A stretch of 64,000 nucleotides of DNA from Atribacterota bacterium (GCA_028717805.1 JAQUNC010000001.1:52269-116268); one strand, 5' to 3'. Counted from the stretch's first letter, positions 4,417 through 44,264 are shown. Notes: generated by a model not told the origin, from the letters alone. Translations and numbers: made by a program.

Positions 4417-4722
4417 TTATTTCTTTTCGTCATCCTGATTAGTTACAGTTTTAGCGCTTTGTGCCTGAAGTTTAAATTTTTTTGATAGTAAGGATTTCTT
4501 TCTGGCAACAGTATTTTTTGCTAGAATACCTTTTTGAGCAGCTTTGTCCAGAGCAGATACACATTGATTGTAATATTGCTGAAGAACATCATTGTTTTCA
4601 GTGCTAAGAGAATTTTCAAATTTTTTAATCAATGTTTTTACTTTGGATTTATAAGCAAAATTTCTTTGATGTTGTTTTTCCGAAATTTTGACTCTTTTTA
4701 TTGCTGACTTTATTATTGGCAT
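4417..4722 (-). CDS. rpsT: 30S ribosomal protein S20
   Basis: 101 aa, basic, alpha-helical, starting MPIIKSAIKRVKISEKQHQRN. It is the only minus-strand gene in the first 43 kb. Confidence 0.85.
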   Translation of the reverse strand: MPIIKSAIKRVKISEKQHQRNFAYKSKVKTLIKKFENSLSTENNDVLQQYYNQCVSALDKAAQKGILAKNTVARKKSLLSKKFKLQAQSAKTVTNQDDEKK

Positions 4723-13414: not shown

Positions 13415-14566
13415 TTGGCTAGCAAGGATTATTACCAAATATTGGGAATTAACAAAGATGCTAATCAGGAAGAAATAAAGAAAGCATATCGTAAATTAGC
13501 TTTAAAATATCATCCAGATGCAAATCCTGATAAGAAGGAAGAGGCAGAAAAAAAATTTAAAGAGATAGGTGAAGCTTACGCTGTTTTAAGTGATCCGGAA
13601 AAGAGAGCTAGATATGACCAGTTTGGCTCTGCTGATACTTCCAATTTTGGTGCCGGATTTGACTTTAGAAACTTTTACGGTGAAGGAATGGATGATTTTA
13701 GTAGCTTTAGTGACATCTTTGAAAGTTTCTTTGGTGGTGGTACTCGTAGAACTTATCGCCGTGATAGAGCTAAAAAAGGAGCTGATTTAAGGTATAACCT
13801 AGAAATAACTTTAAAAGAAGCTGCTTTTGGAGCAGAAAAAAAGATTGAAATACCGGTTTGGCAAACATGCAGTAACTGTAAGGGAAGCGGAGCAGAACCA
13901 GGAACGACAAAAAAAACCTGTCCTGATTGTAAGGGAAGTGGAGAGATTAGGATTACTCAAAACACTTTTTTTGGTCAAACCATTAATATTCAAACTTGCC
14001 CCAGATGTAAGGGGGAGGGTAAGATTATAGAAACACCCTGTAGAGTCTGTCGTGGTTCTGGAAAGGTAAAGAAAAGAAAAACAATAAACATCAAAATTCT
14101 GGCTGGTGTGGAAAGTGGGCATCGTCTCAGACTGGCCGGTTTAGGAGAACCTGGTGAAAACGGTGGCCCTTCGGGAGACTTATTTATAGTTCTGTATGTT
14201 AAAGAGCATCCCATATTTAAACGAAGTGGGGCAGATATTTATTGTGACCATAAAATTAGCTTACCCAAAGCAATTTTAGGCGGAGAAACTACAGTTCCCA
14301 CTTTAGAGGGCAATGTTAAAATGCGTATACCAGCAGGGACTCAGAGTGATACTGTTTTTCGATTACGGGATAAAGGTGCTTATGTTCTTGGTTCTAAAAA
14401 TAGAGGAGATGAGCAAGTCAGGGTGATCGTAGAAATTCCTAAAAACTTAAATGCTAAGACAAAAAGATTGATTTATGAATTAGCCCAGGTAATGGGAGAA
14501 AATATTGACCAAATTGGTGAAAAAAATTTTTTTGAAAAGGTAAGAGATTCTTTTACCAAAAAATAA
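13415..14566 (+). CDS. dnaJ: Chaperone DnaJ (type I: J domain, G/F region, four CxxCxGxG zinc-finger repeats)
   Basis: [32 protein letters not shown] domain. The four repeats are [24 protein letters not shown] and [11 protein letters not shown] start 7 nt after aaagggg. Confidence 0.95.
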
Positions 14567-27403: not shown

Positions 27404-29611
27404 ATGTCAAAAATTGAGAAAAAAAATTATTCCGTTAAGATTAAGAAAAGAGTTATAGGTATTTTTCTAATCTTTATTGCTATTTATTACTTATATATGC
27501 TTTTTTCCCCTGAAAAAACAATTGCTCCCTTTCTTAATATTATCAACAATATCAACAAGCTAATTGGATTGGGTAAATATTTCATATTTGTCTTTATGAT
27601 GATTGAAGGTTTTCATTTACTTTTTAATTTTAATATTCCCAATTTCTATAATAGAATGTTTGGAATTACCTCTTTAATATTGGTATTATTAGCTTTTATT
27701 CATTTAAGATTAATATTTATTGAAAACGCCTATTATATGTCCATTAAGGGAATAGGCGGAGGCCTTTATGGATATTATATAGCAAGGCATTTAAATAATT
27801 ATTTTGGCTTATCCGGAGCTTATCTATTTCTCATTGCCCTGGGTTTAATTGCACTATTATTTGCAACAGATCTTTCTTTTCTGTACCTTTTTAGCTTTAT
27901 TTTTAAAAGAATAGTAATTGGATTCAATAGGTTGGTAACAATATTTCCAACCAATAGAATGAAAGAAAAAAGAATGCAGAAAAGAGAATCAAGAAAATCA
28001 ATTAAAATTTATTCATCAAATACTGAGGAAATAAAAAGAAAACCAGAACCAATTTTTAAGAAAGATATTTTATCAAAAGACGAAAAAAAATCAACATCAG
28101 CAATTCAAGAGAAGATAGATTTTATGGTAAAGGGTGATGATGAAGAAAAAAGACTTTCTAACTATTATATTGCCCCATCGATTACTTTATTAAATGAACC
28201 AAAAAAAGAATATAAAGATCGGGATCTGGAAAAAATAAAAGAAAATATTGCTCTATTACAGAGAACTTTGGATAATTTTAATATTCAGGGTGAAGTAATA
28301 GGTGCAACCCAGGGGCCAACGGTAACAAGATATGAAATTCAACCTGCACCCGGGGTGAAAGTATCAAAAATTACCAATCTTAGTAATGATATCGCCTTAG
28401 CATTTGCGTCTCCTTCAGTAAGAATTGAAACCCCTATTCCAGGTAAGAATGCCATAGGCATTGAAGTTCCTAACAAGGAAAAAAACATCGTCTTTTTAAG
28501 AGAAATAATTGAATCAAAAAATTATCAAAGTAATTCTTTTATTTTACCTATAGTACTGGGAAAAGATATAGGTGGGAAAAATATTATTGCAGACTTAGTG
28601 GAATTACCTCATCTACTTATTGCGGGTTCAACAGGATCAGGTAAAAGCGTCTGCCTTAATACCATTATCTTGAGTTTGGTTTATCGTTTTGGTCCTGAAA
28701 TGGTCAAGTTTTTAATTATTGATCCAAAAAGAGTAGAACTTAACATATATAATGGGATACCCCATCTAATTACTCCTATTGTTACTAATACTAAAAAAGT
28801 TGATAAGGTACTTAATTGGGCTATTTCTGAGATGGAAAGAAGATTTAAAATATTTGCTGAGGTTGGAGTTCGCAATTTAAAAGGATATCATGACTATATT
28901 AAAAGTATAAAATCTGAGGAAACAAATTTACCATATATTGTCTTTATTATTGATGAATTAGCTGATTTAATGCTTTCTTCGCCAGTGAAAGTAGAAGAAG
29001 CATTATGCAGGTTAGCTCAAATGACCCGAGCTACGGGAATTCATCTTATTATTGCCACTCAAAGACCTTCTGTAGATATTATTACTGGTTCCATCAAGAT
29101 TAATTTTCCTTCGCGTATTGCCTTTGCAGTATCCACTCAGGTTGATTCAAGGACTATTCTGGATGTAAATGGAGCTGAAAAATTGCTGGGCAATGGAGAT
29201 ATGCTTTTCTCCCCCATTAACGCTCCCAAACCTATAAGAGCCCAAGGAGCATTTGTTTCAGAAAAGGAAATTAAGGATATTGTATCATTTCTAGTCAAGA
29301 ATAATCTCCCTCCAGATTATAATGAAAATATAATTGAACATTTACAACAAAAAGAAGGTGAAAGTGAAGGAATGGGAGATGATGAAGAAGATGAATTATT
29401 CGAAGATGCAGTAGATACAATTATTAATAATAATCAAGCTTCAATTTCCATTTTACAAAGAAAGTTGAGAATTGGTTATACCAGAGCAGCTCGTTTAATA
29501 GATTTAATGGAAAAAAGGGGATTAGTTGGACCATATGATGGTCGTAATCCCAGAAAAATATTACTTTCTAAAGAAAATTTTTTCTCTAATTATAAAAACT
29601 CAAATTCTTAG
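27404..29611 (+). CDS. ftsK: DNA translocase FtsK/SpoIIIE
   Basis: N-terminal TM helices, a linker, the GSTGSGKS Walker A motor, and a C-terminal winged-helix gamma domain (ISILQRKLRIGYTRAARLIDLME). Confidence 0.9.
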   Translation: MSKIEKKNYSVKIKKRVIGIFLIFIAIYYLYMLFSPEKTIAPFLNIINNINKLIGLGKYFIFVFMMIEGFHLLFNFNIPNFYNRMFGITSLILVLLAFIHLRLIFIENAYYMSIKGIGGGLYGYYIARHLNNYFGLSGAYLFLIALGLIALLFATDLSFLYLFSFIFKRIVIGFNRLVTIFPTNRMKEKRMQKRESRKSIKIYSSNTEEIKRKPEPIFKKDILSKDEKKSTSAIQEKIDFMVKGDDEEKRLSNYYIAPSITLLNEPKKEYKDRDLEKIKENIALLQRTLDNFNIQGEVIGATQGPTVTRYEIQPAPGVKVSKITNLSNDIALAFASPSVRIETPIPGKNAIGIEVPNKEKNIVFLREIIESKNYQSNSFILPIVLGKDIGGKNIIADLVELPHLLIAGSTGSGKSVCLNTIILSLVYRFGPEMVKFLIIDPKRVELNIYNGIPHLITPIVTNTKKVDKVLNWAISEMERRFKIFAEVGVRNLKGYHDYIKSIKSEETNLPYIVFIIDELADLMLSSPVKVEEALCRLAQMTRATGIHLIIATQRPSVDIITGSIKINFPSRIAFAVSTQVDSRTILDVNGAEKLLGNGDMLFSPINAPKPIRAQGAFVSEKEIKDIVSFLVKNNLPPDYNENIIEHLQQKEGESEGMGDDEEDELFEDAVDTIINNNQASISILQRKLRIGYTRAARLIDLMEKRGLVGPYDGRNPRKILLSKENFFSNYKNSNS

Positions 29612-40709: not shown

Positions 40710-42083
40710 ATGATGTTTGATATGAATAGAAAAGATAAAAATATATTATATTATTATATTAAAACATTTGGTTGTCAAATGAATGTGAATGACTCTGAAT
40801 ATTTGGCAGGTCAACTCGAAGATATTGGTTATGTAATGACATCAGATTTGAATAAAGCTGACCTTATTATCTTAAATACCTGTTGCGTTAGAGAAAAGGT
40901 AGAGCAAAAGATTTACAGTTTAGCAGGTATAATCAATAAAATTAAGAAGGAAAAGCCCGAACTTATTTTTGGAATCTGTGGTTGTCTGGCTCAGAAGGAA
41001 AAAGAAAATATCCAAAAAAAAGCACCTACAGTTGATTTAATATTTGGACCATCTCAAATTACTTCATTCATAGAGATATTAGAGCTTTACTGGCAAAATA
41101 AAGGAATGAAAACCATTACTTTATGTGATAATACAGAATTATTACAATTAGCAAACAAACCGATAAAATACCATAGCTCCATTACAGCATATGTCCAAAT
41201 TATGAAAGGATGTAATAATTTTTGTTCTTATTGTATTGTTCCCTATACTAGAGGCTTTGAAGAAAGCAGATCTTTACAAGAGATATTAAATGAAATTGAA
41301 AAATTAGTAAAGAAAAACTATAAAGAGATAATATTGTTGGGACAGAATGTTAATTCTTATGGAAAAGATCTAAGTAATGGAGATAATTTTTTAACGTTAC
41401 TTTCAAAAATTAATGACATAAATGGAATTGAAAGAATCAGATTCATTACTTCACATCCCAAAGATTTCAATCTTGATTTAATTAAAGTTATTAAAAATGG
41501 TAATAAAATTTGCGAACATATTCATTTACCTCTTCAATCCGGATCAGATAGGATATTACAAGAAATGAATAGAAAGTACAATATGGAACAATATTACAAT
41601 ATTATTAATAATATTAGGAAATATATTCCTGAAGCCAGTATTACTACTGACGTAATGGTTGGTTTTCCAGGGGAAAAAGAAGGAGATTTTCAAGAAACAG
41701 TTAAAACCTTTCAAAATATTCAGTTTGATTCTGCTTATACCTTTATCTATTCTAATCGAAAAGAGACTCTATCCTCTTTTTTTGGGCAAGAAGTAACCCT
41801 TTTAACTAAGAAAAAACGTTTGTGGACCTTATTAAAAATACAAAATAATATAACTACCAGAATAAATCAACATTTAATAGGTAAAACAATAGAAATACTG
41901 GTTGAAAATAAATCTAAAAAGGGAATAGAAAAGCAATATTGGGGAAAAACAAGAACAAATAAAATAGTTGTTTTTAGCTGTTCTGATGATAATAATGATT
42001 TGTTAGGTAAATTAGTCAATGTGGAAATCAAACAGGCAGATTCTTATACCTTGTTTGGGGAGTTGGTTGATGTTAAATATTAA
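40710..42083 (+). CDS. miaB: tRNA-i6A37 methylthiotransferase MiaB
   Basis: YIKTFGCQMNVNDSE N-terminus, radical SAM CNNFCSYC motif, TRAM C-terminus. Confidence 0.9.
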   Translation: MMFDMNRKDKNILYYYIKTFGCQMNVNDSEYLAGQLEDIGYVMTSDLNKADLIILNTCCVREKVEQKIYSLAGIINKIKKEKPELIFGICGCLAQKEKENIQKKAPTVDLIFGPSQITSFIEILELYWQNKGMKTITLCDNTELLQLANKPIKYHSSITAYVQIMKGCNNFCSYCIVPYTRGFEESRSLQEILNEIEKLVKKNYKEIILLGQNVNSYGKDLSNGDNFLTLLSKINDINGIERIRFITSHPKDFNLDLIKVIKNGNKICEHIHLPLQSGSDRILQEMNRKYNMEQYYNIINNIRKYIPEASITTDVMVGFPGEKEGDFQETVKTFQNIQFDSAYTFIYSNRKETLSSFFGQEVTLLTKKKRLWTLLKIQNNITTRINQHLIGKTIEILVENKSKKGIEKQYWGKTRTNKIVVFSCSDDNNDLLGKLVNVEIKQADSYTLFGELVDVKY

Positions 42084-43023
42084 CAAAATAATTGTTCTTA
42101 CCGGTCCGACCTCTAGTGGAAAAACAGAAATATCCATCAAAATTGCCCAGATTATACCAGATTTGGAAATTATCTCTGCTGATTCAATGCAAATCTATAA
42201 AGATATGGATATTGGTACAGATAAACCAGGAGAGGAAATACTAAATAAATATAAACATCATTGTATTAGTTTAATTGAACCATCAGAAAGTTATGATGTT
42301 AAACAATATACTAAACAAGCACAAAAATGTATTTATGATATATTAACTCGAAATAAAAAACCTATTATTGTGGGGGGAACGGGGCTTTACATTAAAACAC
42401 TTATCAATCCAATATTTCGAGGTCCCGGTCGAAACCAAAAAATTAGAGATGAATTAACTGAATTAGCTAAAGAGAAGGGGAATATATTTTTATATGAGAA
42501 ACTTAAGGAATGTGACTTAGAATATTCCAAGAAAATAAGCATTAATGACACCAGAAGAATAATAAGGGCTTTAGAAGTTTTTTATTTAACTGGTAAACCA
42601 GTATCATATTTTCATAATAAAGAAGATAACCATAAAAATAAAGCAAAATACCAGTATTACATTATATGTATTTACAGGAACAGAGAAAACCTCTATAAAA
42701 GAATTAATTATCGTGTTAACAAAATGGTTGAAAATGGATTGATAGATGAAACTAAAGAATTAATAAACAAATACAATAATATTAATATGAATGCCATGCA
42801 AGGTTTAGGTTATAAACAAATAGTGGATTATTTGCAAGGGGAAAAATCACAAGAAGAATCAATTGAGATAATTAAAAAAGAAACCCGTCATTTTGCGAAA
42901 AGACAGTTAAGCTGGTTCAAAAATCAAATAGAGATAGATTATTGGATCAATTTAGATGACTATTCAGATATACAACAGTGCATTACAGAGATAGTTGAAA
43001 TAATGAAGAGAGAAGGATACTAA
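42070..43023 (+). CDS. miaA: tRNA dimethylallyltransferase MiaA
   Basis: IIVLTGPTSSGKTEISIKIA P-loop. ATG 42070 is in frame with the track ORF that starts at 42019. Confidence 0.9.
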   Translation: MLNINKIIVLTGPTSSGKTEISIKIAQIIPDLEIISADSMQIYKDMDIGTDKPGEEILNKYKHHCISLIEPSESYDVKQYTKQAQKCIYDILTRNKKPIIVGGTGLYIKTLINPIFRGPGRNQKIRDELTELAKEKGNIFLYEKLKECDLEYSKKISINDTRRIIRALEVFYLTGKPVSYFHNKEDNHKNKAKYQYYIICIYRNRENLYKRINYRVNKMVENGLIDETKELINKYNNINMNAMQGLGYKQIVDYLQGEKSQEESIEIIKKETRHFAKRQLSWFKNQIEIDYWINLDDYSDIQQCITEIVEIMKREGY

Positions 43024-43051
43024 AATAATTGATATTATAAAAATATTTTAT

Positions 43052-43079
43052 TGTTCCGATAATATATCTTATGTAAAGT
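43052..43079. other. dif: Candidate dif site (XerC/XerD chromosome dimer resolution site): TGTTCCGATAA-TATATC-TTATGTAAAGT
   Basis: It matches the B. subtilis dif ACTTCCTAGAA-TATATA-TTATGTAAACT at 22 of 28 positions, with 10 of 11 in the XerD arm. It lies 29 bp after the miaA stop, at the point where gene orientation switches from + to -. Confidence 0.5.
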
Positions 43080-43919
43080 GATGGAGGATATTAATAAAAG
43101 ATAATTAGTCTTTATTTTATTTATTTTATCCAAGTTACCCCTTATATCTTTCTTAGAAGTTAGAAATTTTGCTTGTAAGTTCATTCTATGTTACTTAAAT
43201 ATCTATTCATTTTAATTTTATTTATTATTTTTTCCATCATTTAGTAAAATTATTTAAAATTAAAATGTAATTCATTACTTCCAATATTAGTTTCGGTTAT
43301 TCTAAATAATATTAAAAAATCTTTTTAATACGATATGCTTACGTTTAATTTAATTTCTTTTGAACAAACAATAAATATTTCTCTCATTAATGGAATACAA
43401 AATAAGTATTAGAAATTCTATAATATTGATTGATTAATATAATTATTTTGATAATTTTAACTAACTTTATTAGTTATTATATTCAACACTGTATTTTAAA
43501 AATATTTTTATAAATATGTTTAAAAATAAAAAATATTAGAAAATAAACTAACATATTATTGTAATATACCAGAATAACTCAAAATACGTTCAAAATTGAA
43601 AAAATAATTAGGTATTAATGGTTTTATATTTATAGAAAAAATATCAATATTTTTTCAATTAATTGTAAATATTAATTCAATCCAAAATATTTAAAAGATA
43701 GAAGTATTTTTTAAATAAGTATACTAATATATGATGTTATATAATTTCAATGAACAAACTTCAAAATTTCATTGTAAAAATATTTTTAAAAAAATAAAAA
43801 AATAGAAATAGAATATTTAATATTGAAATATATTATTTTTATTTTTCAATTATATTTCAATATTCATTAAAGCTTATTACTACATATAAAAATATAAAAA
43901 GACAAATTTGGTAAGTTAA

Positions 43920-44264
43920 TTAGCAAGTTAAGTGTAACGCAGCAACTTTTTTTAGAGCAGTTTCCTTATTATAATATTGACAAGCTATTTTTGTTTTTTC
44001 AACTATTAGATTTTTTATACCCAAATCTTTTAATTCTTGTATCAAATAATTATCAACCTTCATCAAGCCATATCTACCGGTACCAATAATTAAAATATCT
44101 GGTTTATAATTTATAACGCTTTCTAAATCTGCAATCCTTAAAAAATGCTCTTCTCCTCTCCACCATTTATCCTGAACATGATCGGGAAATACAATAACAT
44201 CTGTTTTATAGCTTGAACCATTAATTATTATTTTACCAAATTGATATTTTACAATAGTATTCAT
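43920..44264 (-). CDS. Mth938-like domain protein (DUF498 family)
   Basis: 114 aa with ...DVIVFPDHVQDKWWRGEEHFL...PDILIIGTGRYGLMKV...LGIKNLIVEKTKIACQYYN, which matches the Mth938 fold family consensus. Confidence 0.6.
   Translation of the reverse strand: MNTIVKYQFGKIIINGSSYKTDVIVFPDHVQDKWWRGEEHFLRIADLESVINYKPDILIIGTGRYGLMKVDNYLIQELKDLGIKNLIVEKTKIACQYYNKETALKKVAALHLTC

Follow-up and report, generated by a model that had tools for sequence, protein, structure and literature searches.

We analysed a 64,000-nucleotide (nt) stretch of an Atribacterota bacterium genome (GCA_028717805.1 JAQUNC010000001.1:52269-116268), here called the window, and in particular an AT-rich tract at 43080-43919 that belongs to a larger gap between genes at 43024-43919 (all coordinates are positions in the whole window). 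The tract is non-coding DNA that flanks dif, the site of dimer resolution on the chromosome, on its XerD-arm side. In a sister species, a 33.3-kb prophage sits between dif and the corresponding tract, and two short islands of the tract resemble the dif-proximal end of this prophage. On balance, we think that the tract is probably an insertion-and-decay zone on the XerD flank of dif, the gutted relic of the dif-proximal module of an element that exploited the Xer system. The tract is neither a gene nor a structured RNA, nor is it a CRISPR array or a Ter fork trap. The analysis thereby locates the terminus of replication and the dif site in an uncultivated candidate phylum from sequence alone, and the odd AT-rich gap would represent the landing and decay side of dif rather than a missed gene.

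The tract lies beside dif at the replication terminus

Open reading frames (ORFs) of at least 100 amino acids (aa) to the left of the tract are all on the plus strand, except a 101-aa minus-strand ORF at 4417-4722 and a nested minus-strand ORF at 13811-14122. Those to the right of the tract are all on the minus strand, except three plus-strand ORFs nested within minus-strand genes. Over the window (1-64000), gene orientation is near-perfectly co-directional with replication, and the ORF at 4417-4722 (minus strand) is the sole non-nested exception among ORFs of this size. GC skew is positive to the left of the tract and negative to the right, and its cumulative maximum falls in the 43-44 kb bin. 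As a rule, G is enriched on the leading strand and genes point in the direction of replication. Because both the GC skew and the gene orientation switch at 43-44 kb, this rule places the replication terminus there. The tract therefore sits at the terminus, where two replichores with co-oriented genes converge. A preliminary description of the tract had named a zone of fork convergence among its candidate explanations, and the orientation switch, the skew peak and the adjacent conserved dif agree with it.

The dif site starts 28 bp after miaA and lies just outside the tract, within the first 56 bp of the gap. It is identical to the dif of Bacillus subtilis at 22 of 28 positions (6/28 mismatches) and to that of Escherichia coli at 20 of 28. 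No other good match exists in the 64 kb, as every other candidate has at least 9 mismatches (none has 8 or fewer). A dif site consists of 28 bp, with two partially inverted 11-bp arms flanking a 6-bp central region (PMC9226527). The sequence at 43052-43079 has this 11+6+11 architecture, the position at the terminus, a single copy in the window and conservation in relatives. Its 23-nt core, CGATAATATATCTTATGTAAAGT, is invariant and located 20-67 nt past miaA in all Atribacterota relatives examined, whose MiaA proteins are 57-100% identical to that of the window. The same core was also found within short spacers in 92 metagenome loci of other, GC-richer taxa, human-gut samples included. The ftsK gene is located ~15 kb from dif, and no Xer gene was found among the tested ORFs of the 64-kb window.

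The gap at 43024-43919 is 896 bp long and ORF-free, bounded by the stop codons of miaA (plus strand) and of a DUF498 gene (minus strand). Both genes terminate there with convergent 3' ends, as the preliminary description had stated. Its account of an ORF-free, very AT-rich tract also holds: the longest ORF touching the gap has 49 aa (43035-43184, minus strand), overlaps dif and is truncated in the sister species, and all the others have at most 27 aa. The 840-bp tract is composed of 356 A, 356 T, 67 C and 61 G, or 84.8% AT, compared with 69.0% for the window, 76.6% for the remaining spacers pooled and 76.3% for 4-fold degenerate sites. In a scan of the window, no 840-bp stretch more than 1.5 kb away from the tract exceeded 77.0% AT. 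The gap is both the longest and the most AT-rich in the window. The runner-up spacers, however, measure 588 and 463 bp, so the earlier range of 10-380 bp for the other spacers was too narrow.

The tract is genuine sequence. An assembly artefact is ruled out because independent assemblies agree: one Logan assembly (L082) is 100% identical through miaA, the tract and the DUF498 gene, and another (L083) differs from the tract of the window by a single 9-bp indel, one extra TTTATTTTA unit. This repeat (43111-43129) is the only polymorphism of the tract among same-species assemblies. The DUF498 protein and its synteny recur in independent assemblies, and the window is 99.995% identical to another Atribacterota metagenome-assembled genome (GCA_028696625.1).

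A prophage is inserted at dif in the sister species

In a sister species, whose MiaA is 91% identical to that of the window, the junction at dif exists in two forms, empty and occupied, both assembled from the same sample series. The empty contigs (L089, L091 and L105) have the order miaA, dif, tract, DUF498. The occupied contigs L088, L090 and L092 match the empty form over 11,023 bases, up to 2 nt beyond dif, and then continue into foreign genes. Three further contigs (L104, L108 and L110) match the empty form from the DUF498 gene across the whole tract into dif and diverge within the XerC arm. The hybrid site at this far junction, AAGTATATTAA-TATATC-TTATGTAAAGT, has a foreign XerC arm. The prophage thus separates dif from the tract; the crossover took place within dif and regenerated a perfect dif on the miaA side. 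L088 and L104 are located on one 161.7-kb contig (JGI Ga0334882_1000082), in which the insert spans 33.3 kb, at ~80,989-114,291 by coordinate arithmetic.

We read ~30.4 of the 33.3 kb of the prophage, from L088 (11022-20954), L104 (11117-20345) and L241, a contig of the prophage middle that was reached through an IMG/VR sequence tag and overlaps L104 at 100% identity. The remaining ~2.9 kb are mostly an 846-aa fibre gene. At the dif-proximal end, an XRE-type helix-turn-helix (HTH) regulator adjoins dif and is followed by a 77-aa protein and a TPR protein. Next come a methyltransferase/restriction-endonuclease fusion, lysis genes, Glug and fn3 fibre-like proteins and a tail tube protein. Further on are head-tail connectors, an HK97-type capsid, a prohead protease, a portal fused to a Mu-F domain and a terminase, and the far end encodes radical-SAM proteins, Rep_O, a Gp3-like protein and a 172-aa protein. 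No match to an integrase or to another recombinase family was found in the ~30.4 of 33.3 kb. Related phage contigs of ~37 kb also carry an HTH gene beside a dif-like site, with no integrase in the portions read.

From the junction sequences, we infer that integration of the prophage is Xer-dependent. The prophage may be a tailed-phage member of the integrative mobile elements that exploit Xer (IMEXs). The elements described in the IMEX papers that we found are filamentous phages, non-tailed double-jelly-roll phages or genomic islands, and a tailed phage is not among them. If the Xer dependence is true, the range of viruses that hijack the dimer-resolution system of their host widens. An apparently integrase-less 33-kb tailed prophage with junctions inside dif is a testable lead, as is the short DNA block, described below, that accompanies dif in several Atribacterota lineages.

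Viral contigs in IMG/VR contain similar sites. Ten of them (L118-L127) share the dif central region and the XerD arm and differ in their XerC arms, and the site is often located at the contig end. In L120, an XRE-type HTH gene adjoins the dif-like site, with no recombinase nearby. The terminases of these ten contigs are ~76% identical to that of the prophage. The HTH and 77-aa (p77) proteins of the prophage have few relatives in IMG/VR.

Independent Atribacterota assemblies often break at dif or within a few hundred bases of it (L001, L093, L111, L094, L117, L224 and L215). L111 stops at precisely the position at which the occupied and empty forms part, L001 stops 2 nt past dif, and the end of L093 falls in the first 125 nt of the flank. 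Contig ends at dif are what a bubble in the assembly graph would produce. This pattern suggests that the breaks reflect population heterogeneity at dif, and not only low coverage of AT-rich DNA. A prophage at dif, if Xer-dependent, would explain why Atribacterota metagenome assemblies frequently break at this point.

Two islands of the tract resemble the prophage

The first island is located next to dif (43084-43144). In the ungapped comparison with the prophage end next to dif, the window is identical at 38 of 65 positions and the sister species (L089) at 40 of 65, compared with a background of 22-23 of 65 in relatives that carry a cyclase gene next to dif. A composition-aware alignment of the tract with the prophage that includes this dif-proximal segment gives z=3.8. 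In the prophage and in two relatives (L160 and L164), the segment forms a GGCC-loop-GGCC hairpin followed by a T-run. The hairpin of L160, AAGGCCCATAGGCCTT, and its T-run are intact and score as terminator-like in the direction of miaA. The counterpart in the window has decayed to AAAGA-TAATTAG-TCTTT.

The second island is a conserved 66-nt block (43570-43635). A profile hidden Markov model (HMM) of the block was searched against both strands of the 2.85 Mb of fetched sequence. All matches with E<0.01 are on the XerD side of dif, in one orientation and 105-790 nt away from it. In leave-one-out searches, the block was recovered with E values of 1.9e-6 for the window, 3.8e-7 for L164 and 1.1e-5 for L160. 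Two further candidates, L183 and L094, were not recovered (E 1.6 and 3.3) and are doubtful members. The robust chromosomal members are those of the window and its sister, of L164 and L160, and of L215, an independent lineage, and they are located 396-491 nt from dif. The copy in the prophage was recovered at E 0.002 by a model built without the prophage, as the best match outside the training set. It is located 789 nt from dif, just upstream of the sigma-70-like promoters of the 77-aa and HTH genes, which read towards dif. The block is present as a single copy in a single orientation. RNAalifold gave no consensus RNA structure for it, with 0 consensus pairs in an alignment of 8 sequences. The block appears to be a linear DNA motif, possibly with the role of a promoter or an operator.

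The flank drifts and varies among Atribacterota

The sister species has an orthologous gap of 810 bp. About 660 bp of its tract can be aligned with that of the window at ~83% identity, with several indels. Between the same two species, the flanking genes diverge by 13.3% at 4-fold sites (79/595). With an identity of ~83% against this divergence, the tract changes at or above the neutral rate. It is thus inherited and mostly unconstrained. In a third species (4-fold divergence 49%), the gap measures 805 bp and is ~80% AT, and it cannot be aligned past dif and a few tens of bases. The alignment to relatives that the preliminary description had proposed thus finds an orthologous long tract in the sister species and loses it in more distant relatives.

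To place these gaps in a wider survey, the 110 metagenome stretches that contain the dif core were divided into 18 Atribacterota-like loci and 92 loci of other taxa. In 18/18 of the Atribacterota-like loci, miaA and dif are separated by 20-67 nt. From dif to the next ORF, the twelve of them with enough flank have gaps of 27, 182, 185, 436, 595, 682, 710, 837, 842, 894, 1697 and >1557 nt, at least 436 nt in nine of the twelve. In the 92 loci of other taxa, the median gap is 29.5 nt on the left and 61 nt on the right, and the right gap exceeds 400 nt in only 1 of 88. Most Atribacterota lineages therefore have a long ORF-free flank (0.4-1.7 kb), on the XerD side only. A normal short spacer or a real gene in related strains would, according to the preliminary description, have made the tract a trivial observation. 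The close relatives keep a long tract, and it is the deeper relatives that have a cyclase gene or a ~180-bp spacer.

In one of these deeper relatives (L100), miaA and the DUF498 gene are 894 bp apart, a distance occupied by a 188-aa cyclase (PF04199) and a 252-bp spacer. In two others (L096 and L186), the cyclase gene is located 182 nt past dif. The near-equality of 894 bp in L100 and 896 bp in the window would suit a plain neutral spacer or a fully eroded pseudogene, for example of the cyclase, that has nothing to do with mobile elements. The likeness to the prophage would then be due to chance or to generic terminator and AT features. The divergence of the tract at about the neutral rate is compatible with this explanation, as is the fact that its interior does not significantly resemble the prophage under composition-aware scoring. 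However, neither tblastn nor tblastx found similarity to the cyclase of the L100/L096 position in the tract of the window, and we rejected a cyclase pseudogene for want of any residual similarity. In addition, the prophage block is recovered by a model that excludes the prophage, and the dif-proximal likeness is confined to lineages with a long flank. We consider a plain spacer or eroded pseudogene unlikely.

Several flanks of relatives contain additional elements. The sister tract carries a GC-richer element of ~120 nt with terminal inverted repeats, CTGCTCTCCC...GGGGAGCAG (L105 10396-10530 = L089 11580-11714). It occupies the place of 43685-43845 in the window, which is without it. A second copy, 94% identical, is found in another species, ~3 kb to the left of dif (L220 6747-6850). 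It matches nothing in Rfam and is perhaps a small mobile or repeated element. In L215, two large ORFs are located in the XerD-side flank, just past the 66-nt block (573-3357 nt to the right of dif, oriented). Their N-terminal sequences look like those of IS256-type and IS21-type transposases. In L164 and L160, a conserved 51-54-aa ORF with a predicted transmembrane helix, MENVIREIQSYLAPFKELFFLLGVIILVWAIVALVIKK..., is located ~780-1085 nt to the right of dif (oriented); tblastx and tblastn do not find it in the tract of the window.

Probable insertion and decay beside dif

The tract adjoins dif on the side where the prophage of the sister species is deposited, and this arrangement suggests how the flank could have formed. 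Each insertion inside dif would regenerate a perfect dif on the miaA side and put the element and a hybrid site on the tract side. Because dif is regenerated on the miaA side each time, foreign DNA would always land on the side of the tract. The XerD flank would then be the place where foreign DNA arrives and subsequently decays. According to this scheme, an element exploiting Xer may have displaced the cyclase gene that deeper-branching relatives carry here. Most of the present 840 bp would be unconstrained DNA that drifted to very high AT. The two islands, the decayed hairpin next to dif and the promoter- or operator-like block, would be the remains of a dif-proximal regulatory module of the prophage type; in the prophage, both islands bracket the regulator genes at the dif-proximal end. 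The transposase-like ORFs in the L215 flank and the small repeated element in the sister tract are consistent with a decay zone.

Several results weigh against this scheme. When the first 45 nt are omitted, the chained composition-aware alignment of the tract with the prophage gives z=1.5, which is not significant. A blastn comparison of the tract interior with the prophage does return an 80-nt match, equalled by 1 of 200 shuffles; in view of the chained alignment, we do not claim interior homology, and only the two islands are claimed. The usual signature of an IMEX remnant is a second, degenerate dif-like site at its distal end, and the preliminary description had proposed to look for one. 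None above chance appeared in the tract or in eight related tracts, whether the Hamming scans used the 28-mer or the 20-mer common to dif and attP, the attachment site of the phage. The best match of the tract to this 20-mer has 7 mismatches, no better than in shuffles (200/200). No remnants of the prophage genes HTH104, p77, TPR and p172 were found in the tract by tblastn at E up to 5, nor a remnant of the cyclase by tblastn or tblastx. A two-part pattern search found no copy of the block in IMG/VR. In at least three lineages with saturation at neutral sites, the distance from dif to the block is similar (396-491 nt), which is better explained by an old host element kept by selection than by scars that arose independently. 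Finally, simple decay is assumed rather than demonstrated, because the 84.8% AT of the tract exceeds both the 4-fold sites (76.3%) and the prophage-bearing locus L088 (~68% overall). The decayed IMEX at dif that had been proposed from the tract itself is thus supported in part: the sister prophage between dif and the tract and the two islands speak for it, and the missing second dif-like site and gene remnants speak against it.

Alternatively, the flank may be an old functional feature of the host. Selection would have maintained the 66-nt block, and perhaps its spacing from dif, for a role as promoter or binding site in the biology of the terminus or of dimer resolution, and the phage would have copied or mimicked the block. 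This is possible, although we do not think it probable. It would account for the recovery of the block from lineages whose synonymous sites are saturated, in all of which it keeps to the XerD side, to one orientation and to the same range of distances, and for its absence from IMG/VR phages in the pattern search. In addition, long ORF-free flanks on the XerD side persist in most Atribacterota despite their compact genomes, and not in the other taxa that share the dif core. However, the block is absent in L113/L236, L163, L177 and L169, and the long flank itself is absent in L100 and L096/L186. In the sister species, the right half of the block is interrupted by a 5-nt deletion. Everything from the block to dif evolves at or above the neutral rate, and promoter-like sites in the tract are at chance level. 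In a more specific and rather doubtful proposal, the block would be a host-maintained accessory of dif, a protein-binding site or promoter ~400-490 bp away on its XerD side. The long AT-rich flank would be under selection as part of the terminus architecture of the phylum, and integrase-less tailed dif phages would carry a copy of the block to use the same machinery. If a host-maintained block is true, it would be a new component of Xer/dif biology, and Xer exploitation would extend to tailed phages.

Tests for RNA, repeats, fork traps and curvature

The preliminary description had also considered an unannotated structured RNA, and the evidence does not support one. Neither the tract nor the sister tract matched Rfam, whether at the gathering threshold or with E values up to 10. 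The folding z-scores of the tract (-1.2 and +0.25) are not above background. The tract contains 17 promoter-like sites compared with 17.4 expected, and 0 terminators. With the lack of consensus pairs in the block, these results led us to reject a structured non-coding RNA. A somewhat broader explanation is that the tract encodes an unannotated non-coding RNA or a small protein. The promoter-like block and the hairpin by dif, which is intact in some relatives, could bound a transcript of ~450 nt, and the longer tracts of L160 and L164 carry the conserved membrane ORF. Against this, the longest ORF in the gap has 49 aa, no ORF there is conserved, comparison of the lineages gives no coding signal, and the small membrane ORF is missing from the window. 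Considering also the negative RNA results, we regard such a product as very unlikely.

The position of the tract exactly at the skew switch, together with its very high AT, could instead indicate a replication fork trap (Ter sites with a Tus- or RTP-like protein), a cluster of XerD-binding sites for the unloading of SMC (XDS), or a curved, nucleoid-organising segment. The motif ATTGAAA/TTTCAAT also occurs 6 times in the tract compared with 0.9 expected. However, this motif was picked post hoc. In an unbiased k-mer test, the maximum of the tract did not exceed that of shuffles, and the sister species does not conserve the copies. Of the recurring motifs in the preliminary description, only those of the ATTGAAA type stand out. 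The search for Ter motifs recommended there found no opposed sets of Ter-like repeats in the tract, only weak two-copy AT-rich repeats, and a fork trap was rejected since opposed motifs of ~20-30 bp are lacking and the k-mer maximum is at shuffle level. Copies of the XerD arm with at most 2 mismatches number 41 in the window compared with 64.8 expected, with one 2-mismatch copy in the tract, so they are not enriched and an XDS cluster was rejected. The phasing of A-tracts, a measure of DNA curvature, was reached by 60 of 300 shuffles and is not significant, which leaves a nucleoid-organising AT tract without support. Fork trap, XDS cluster and curved segment are together the most improbable of the explanations considered.

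As the preliminary description had noted, the tract has no CRISPR-like periodicity. We found no regularly spaced direct repeats in it, only small AT tandem repeats, and rejected a CRISPR array.

Comparison with known systems at dif and other Xer sites

At dif1 of Vibrio cholerae, with its CTXphi, TLCphi and RS1 arrays, integrase-less IMEXs recombine within dif, and one junction regenerates the canonical dif (PMC12715192, PMC9226527). Elements pile up on one side there, and the terminal gene by attP encodes a repressor (PMC12715192, PMC9226527). The sister-species prophage follows the same junction logic, with an XRE-type regulator adjoining dif. Unlike dif1, the window holds no element: what it has is a non-coding flank in which two short islands resemble the prophage and a second dif-like site is missing. 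In addition, the sister-species element, of 33 kb, is a tailed phage whose capsid is of the HK97 type, and is neither filamentous nor of the double-jelly-roll type. It also differs from TLCphi in its attachment site: the degenerate arm is the XerD arm in TLCphi and the XerC arm in the attP of the prophage.

In dif-integrated islands such as the gonococcal genetic island of Neisseria and LME-1 of Legionella (PMC9765430), foreign DNA is located at the terminus between dif and a non-canonical dif-like site. Both sites and the genes are retained in these islands, whereas the tract has neither a second site nor genes. The terminus of B. subtilis is similar to that of the window in that a dif of the Firmicutes type (22/28) lies at the skew switch between convergent replichores. 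It differs by its RTP/Ter and XDS systems, as the tract has no Ter-like repeats and no extra XerD arms. In the plasmid sites cer and psi, non-coding DNA with protein-binding motifs is located beside the Xer core, and the candidate block beside dif may be comparable. The accessory sequences of cer and psi measure ~180 bp and are located on the XerC side, with a fixed spacing to the core. Here, the block is found on the XerD side, 396-491 nt from dif, or 789 nt in the phage.

Features of the gap and its surroundings

Table 1. Features at and near the AT-rich tract beside dif (window coordinates)
Feature	Position	Strand	Evidence or remarks
Chromosomal dif, TGTTCCGATAA-TATATC-TTATGTAAAGT	43052..43079	+	XerC-type arm 43052-43062, central region 43063-43068, XerD-type arm 43069-43079
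Dif-proximal island: decayed hairpin and T-run (AAAGATAATTAGTCTTT ATTTTATTTATTTTAT)	43084..43144	+	Resembles the prophage end next to dif
TTTATTTTA tandem repeat, 2.1 copies, copy number sample-dependent	43111..43129	.	Tandem Repeats Finder; L083 gains one 9-bp unit
AT-rich filler, fast-evolving, orthologous in sister species only	43145..43569	.	~82% identity to L089; 4-fold divergence 13.3%
Conserved 66-nt block: two TCAAAAT repeats 11 nt apart, then AATGGTTTTATATT	43570..43635	+	Profile HMM
Variable right part of tract	43636..43919	.	43685-43845 without sister-species counterpart (alignment, blastn)
miaA (tRNA dimethylallyltransferase), final plus-strand gene	42019..43023	+	NCBIfam TIGR00174, E 5e-88; 100% identical 317-aa protein named MiaA, Atribacterota bacterium
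DUF498 (MTH938/NDUFAF3-like) gene, first minus-strand gene right of terminus	43920..44264	-	Pfam PF04430, E 2.4e-18
ftsK with gamma domain, encoding the translocase that normally activates Xer at dif	27404..29611	+	Pfam FtsK_SpoIIIE, FtsK_alpha, FtsK_gamma, FtsK_4TM

The filler between the two islands (43145-43569) cannot be aligned with the third species, shows no coding conservation by tblastx and contains no protein remnants. The longest miaA ORF encodes 334 aa and overlaps miaB by 65 nt (42019-42083). The database proteins begin at 42070 (317 aa), which is probably the true start.

A third variant of the junction was found in one contig (L106; ERZ27252296 k141_175720). It contains the DUF498 gene and then 172 bp of tract, and switches at the edge of the inverted-repeat element. 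From 10518 onward, it encodes PhoH, a 7TM-HD protein, YbeY and further genes on the same strand, and its right-hand genes are not in the window. This contig is either a chimeric assembly through the repeat or a real rearrangement of the terminus. In addition, the end of contig L094 (11332-11351; GCA_964525625.1, CAZGKY010000033.1) reads AGATCGGAAGAGCGTCGTGT, an Illumina adapter left in a public metagenome-assembled genome.

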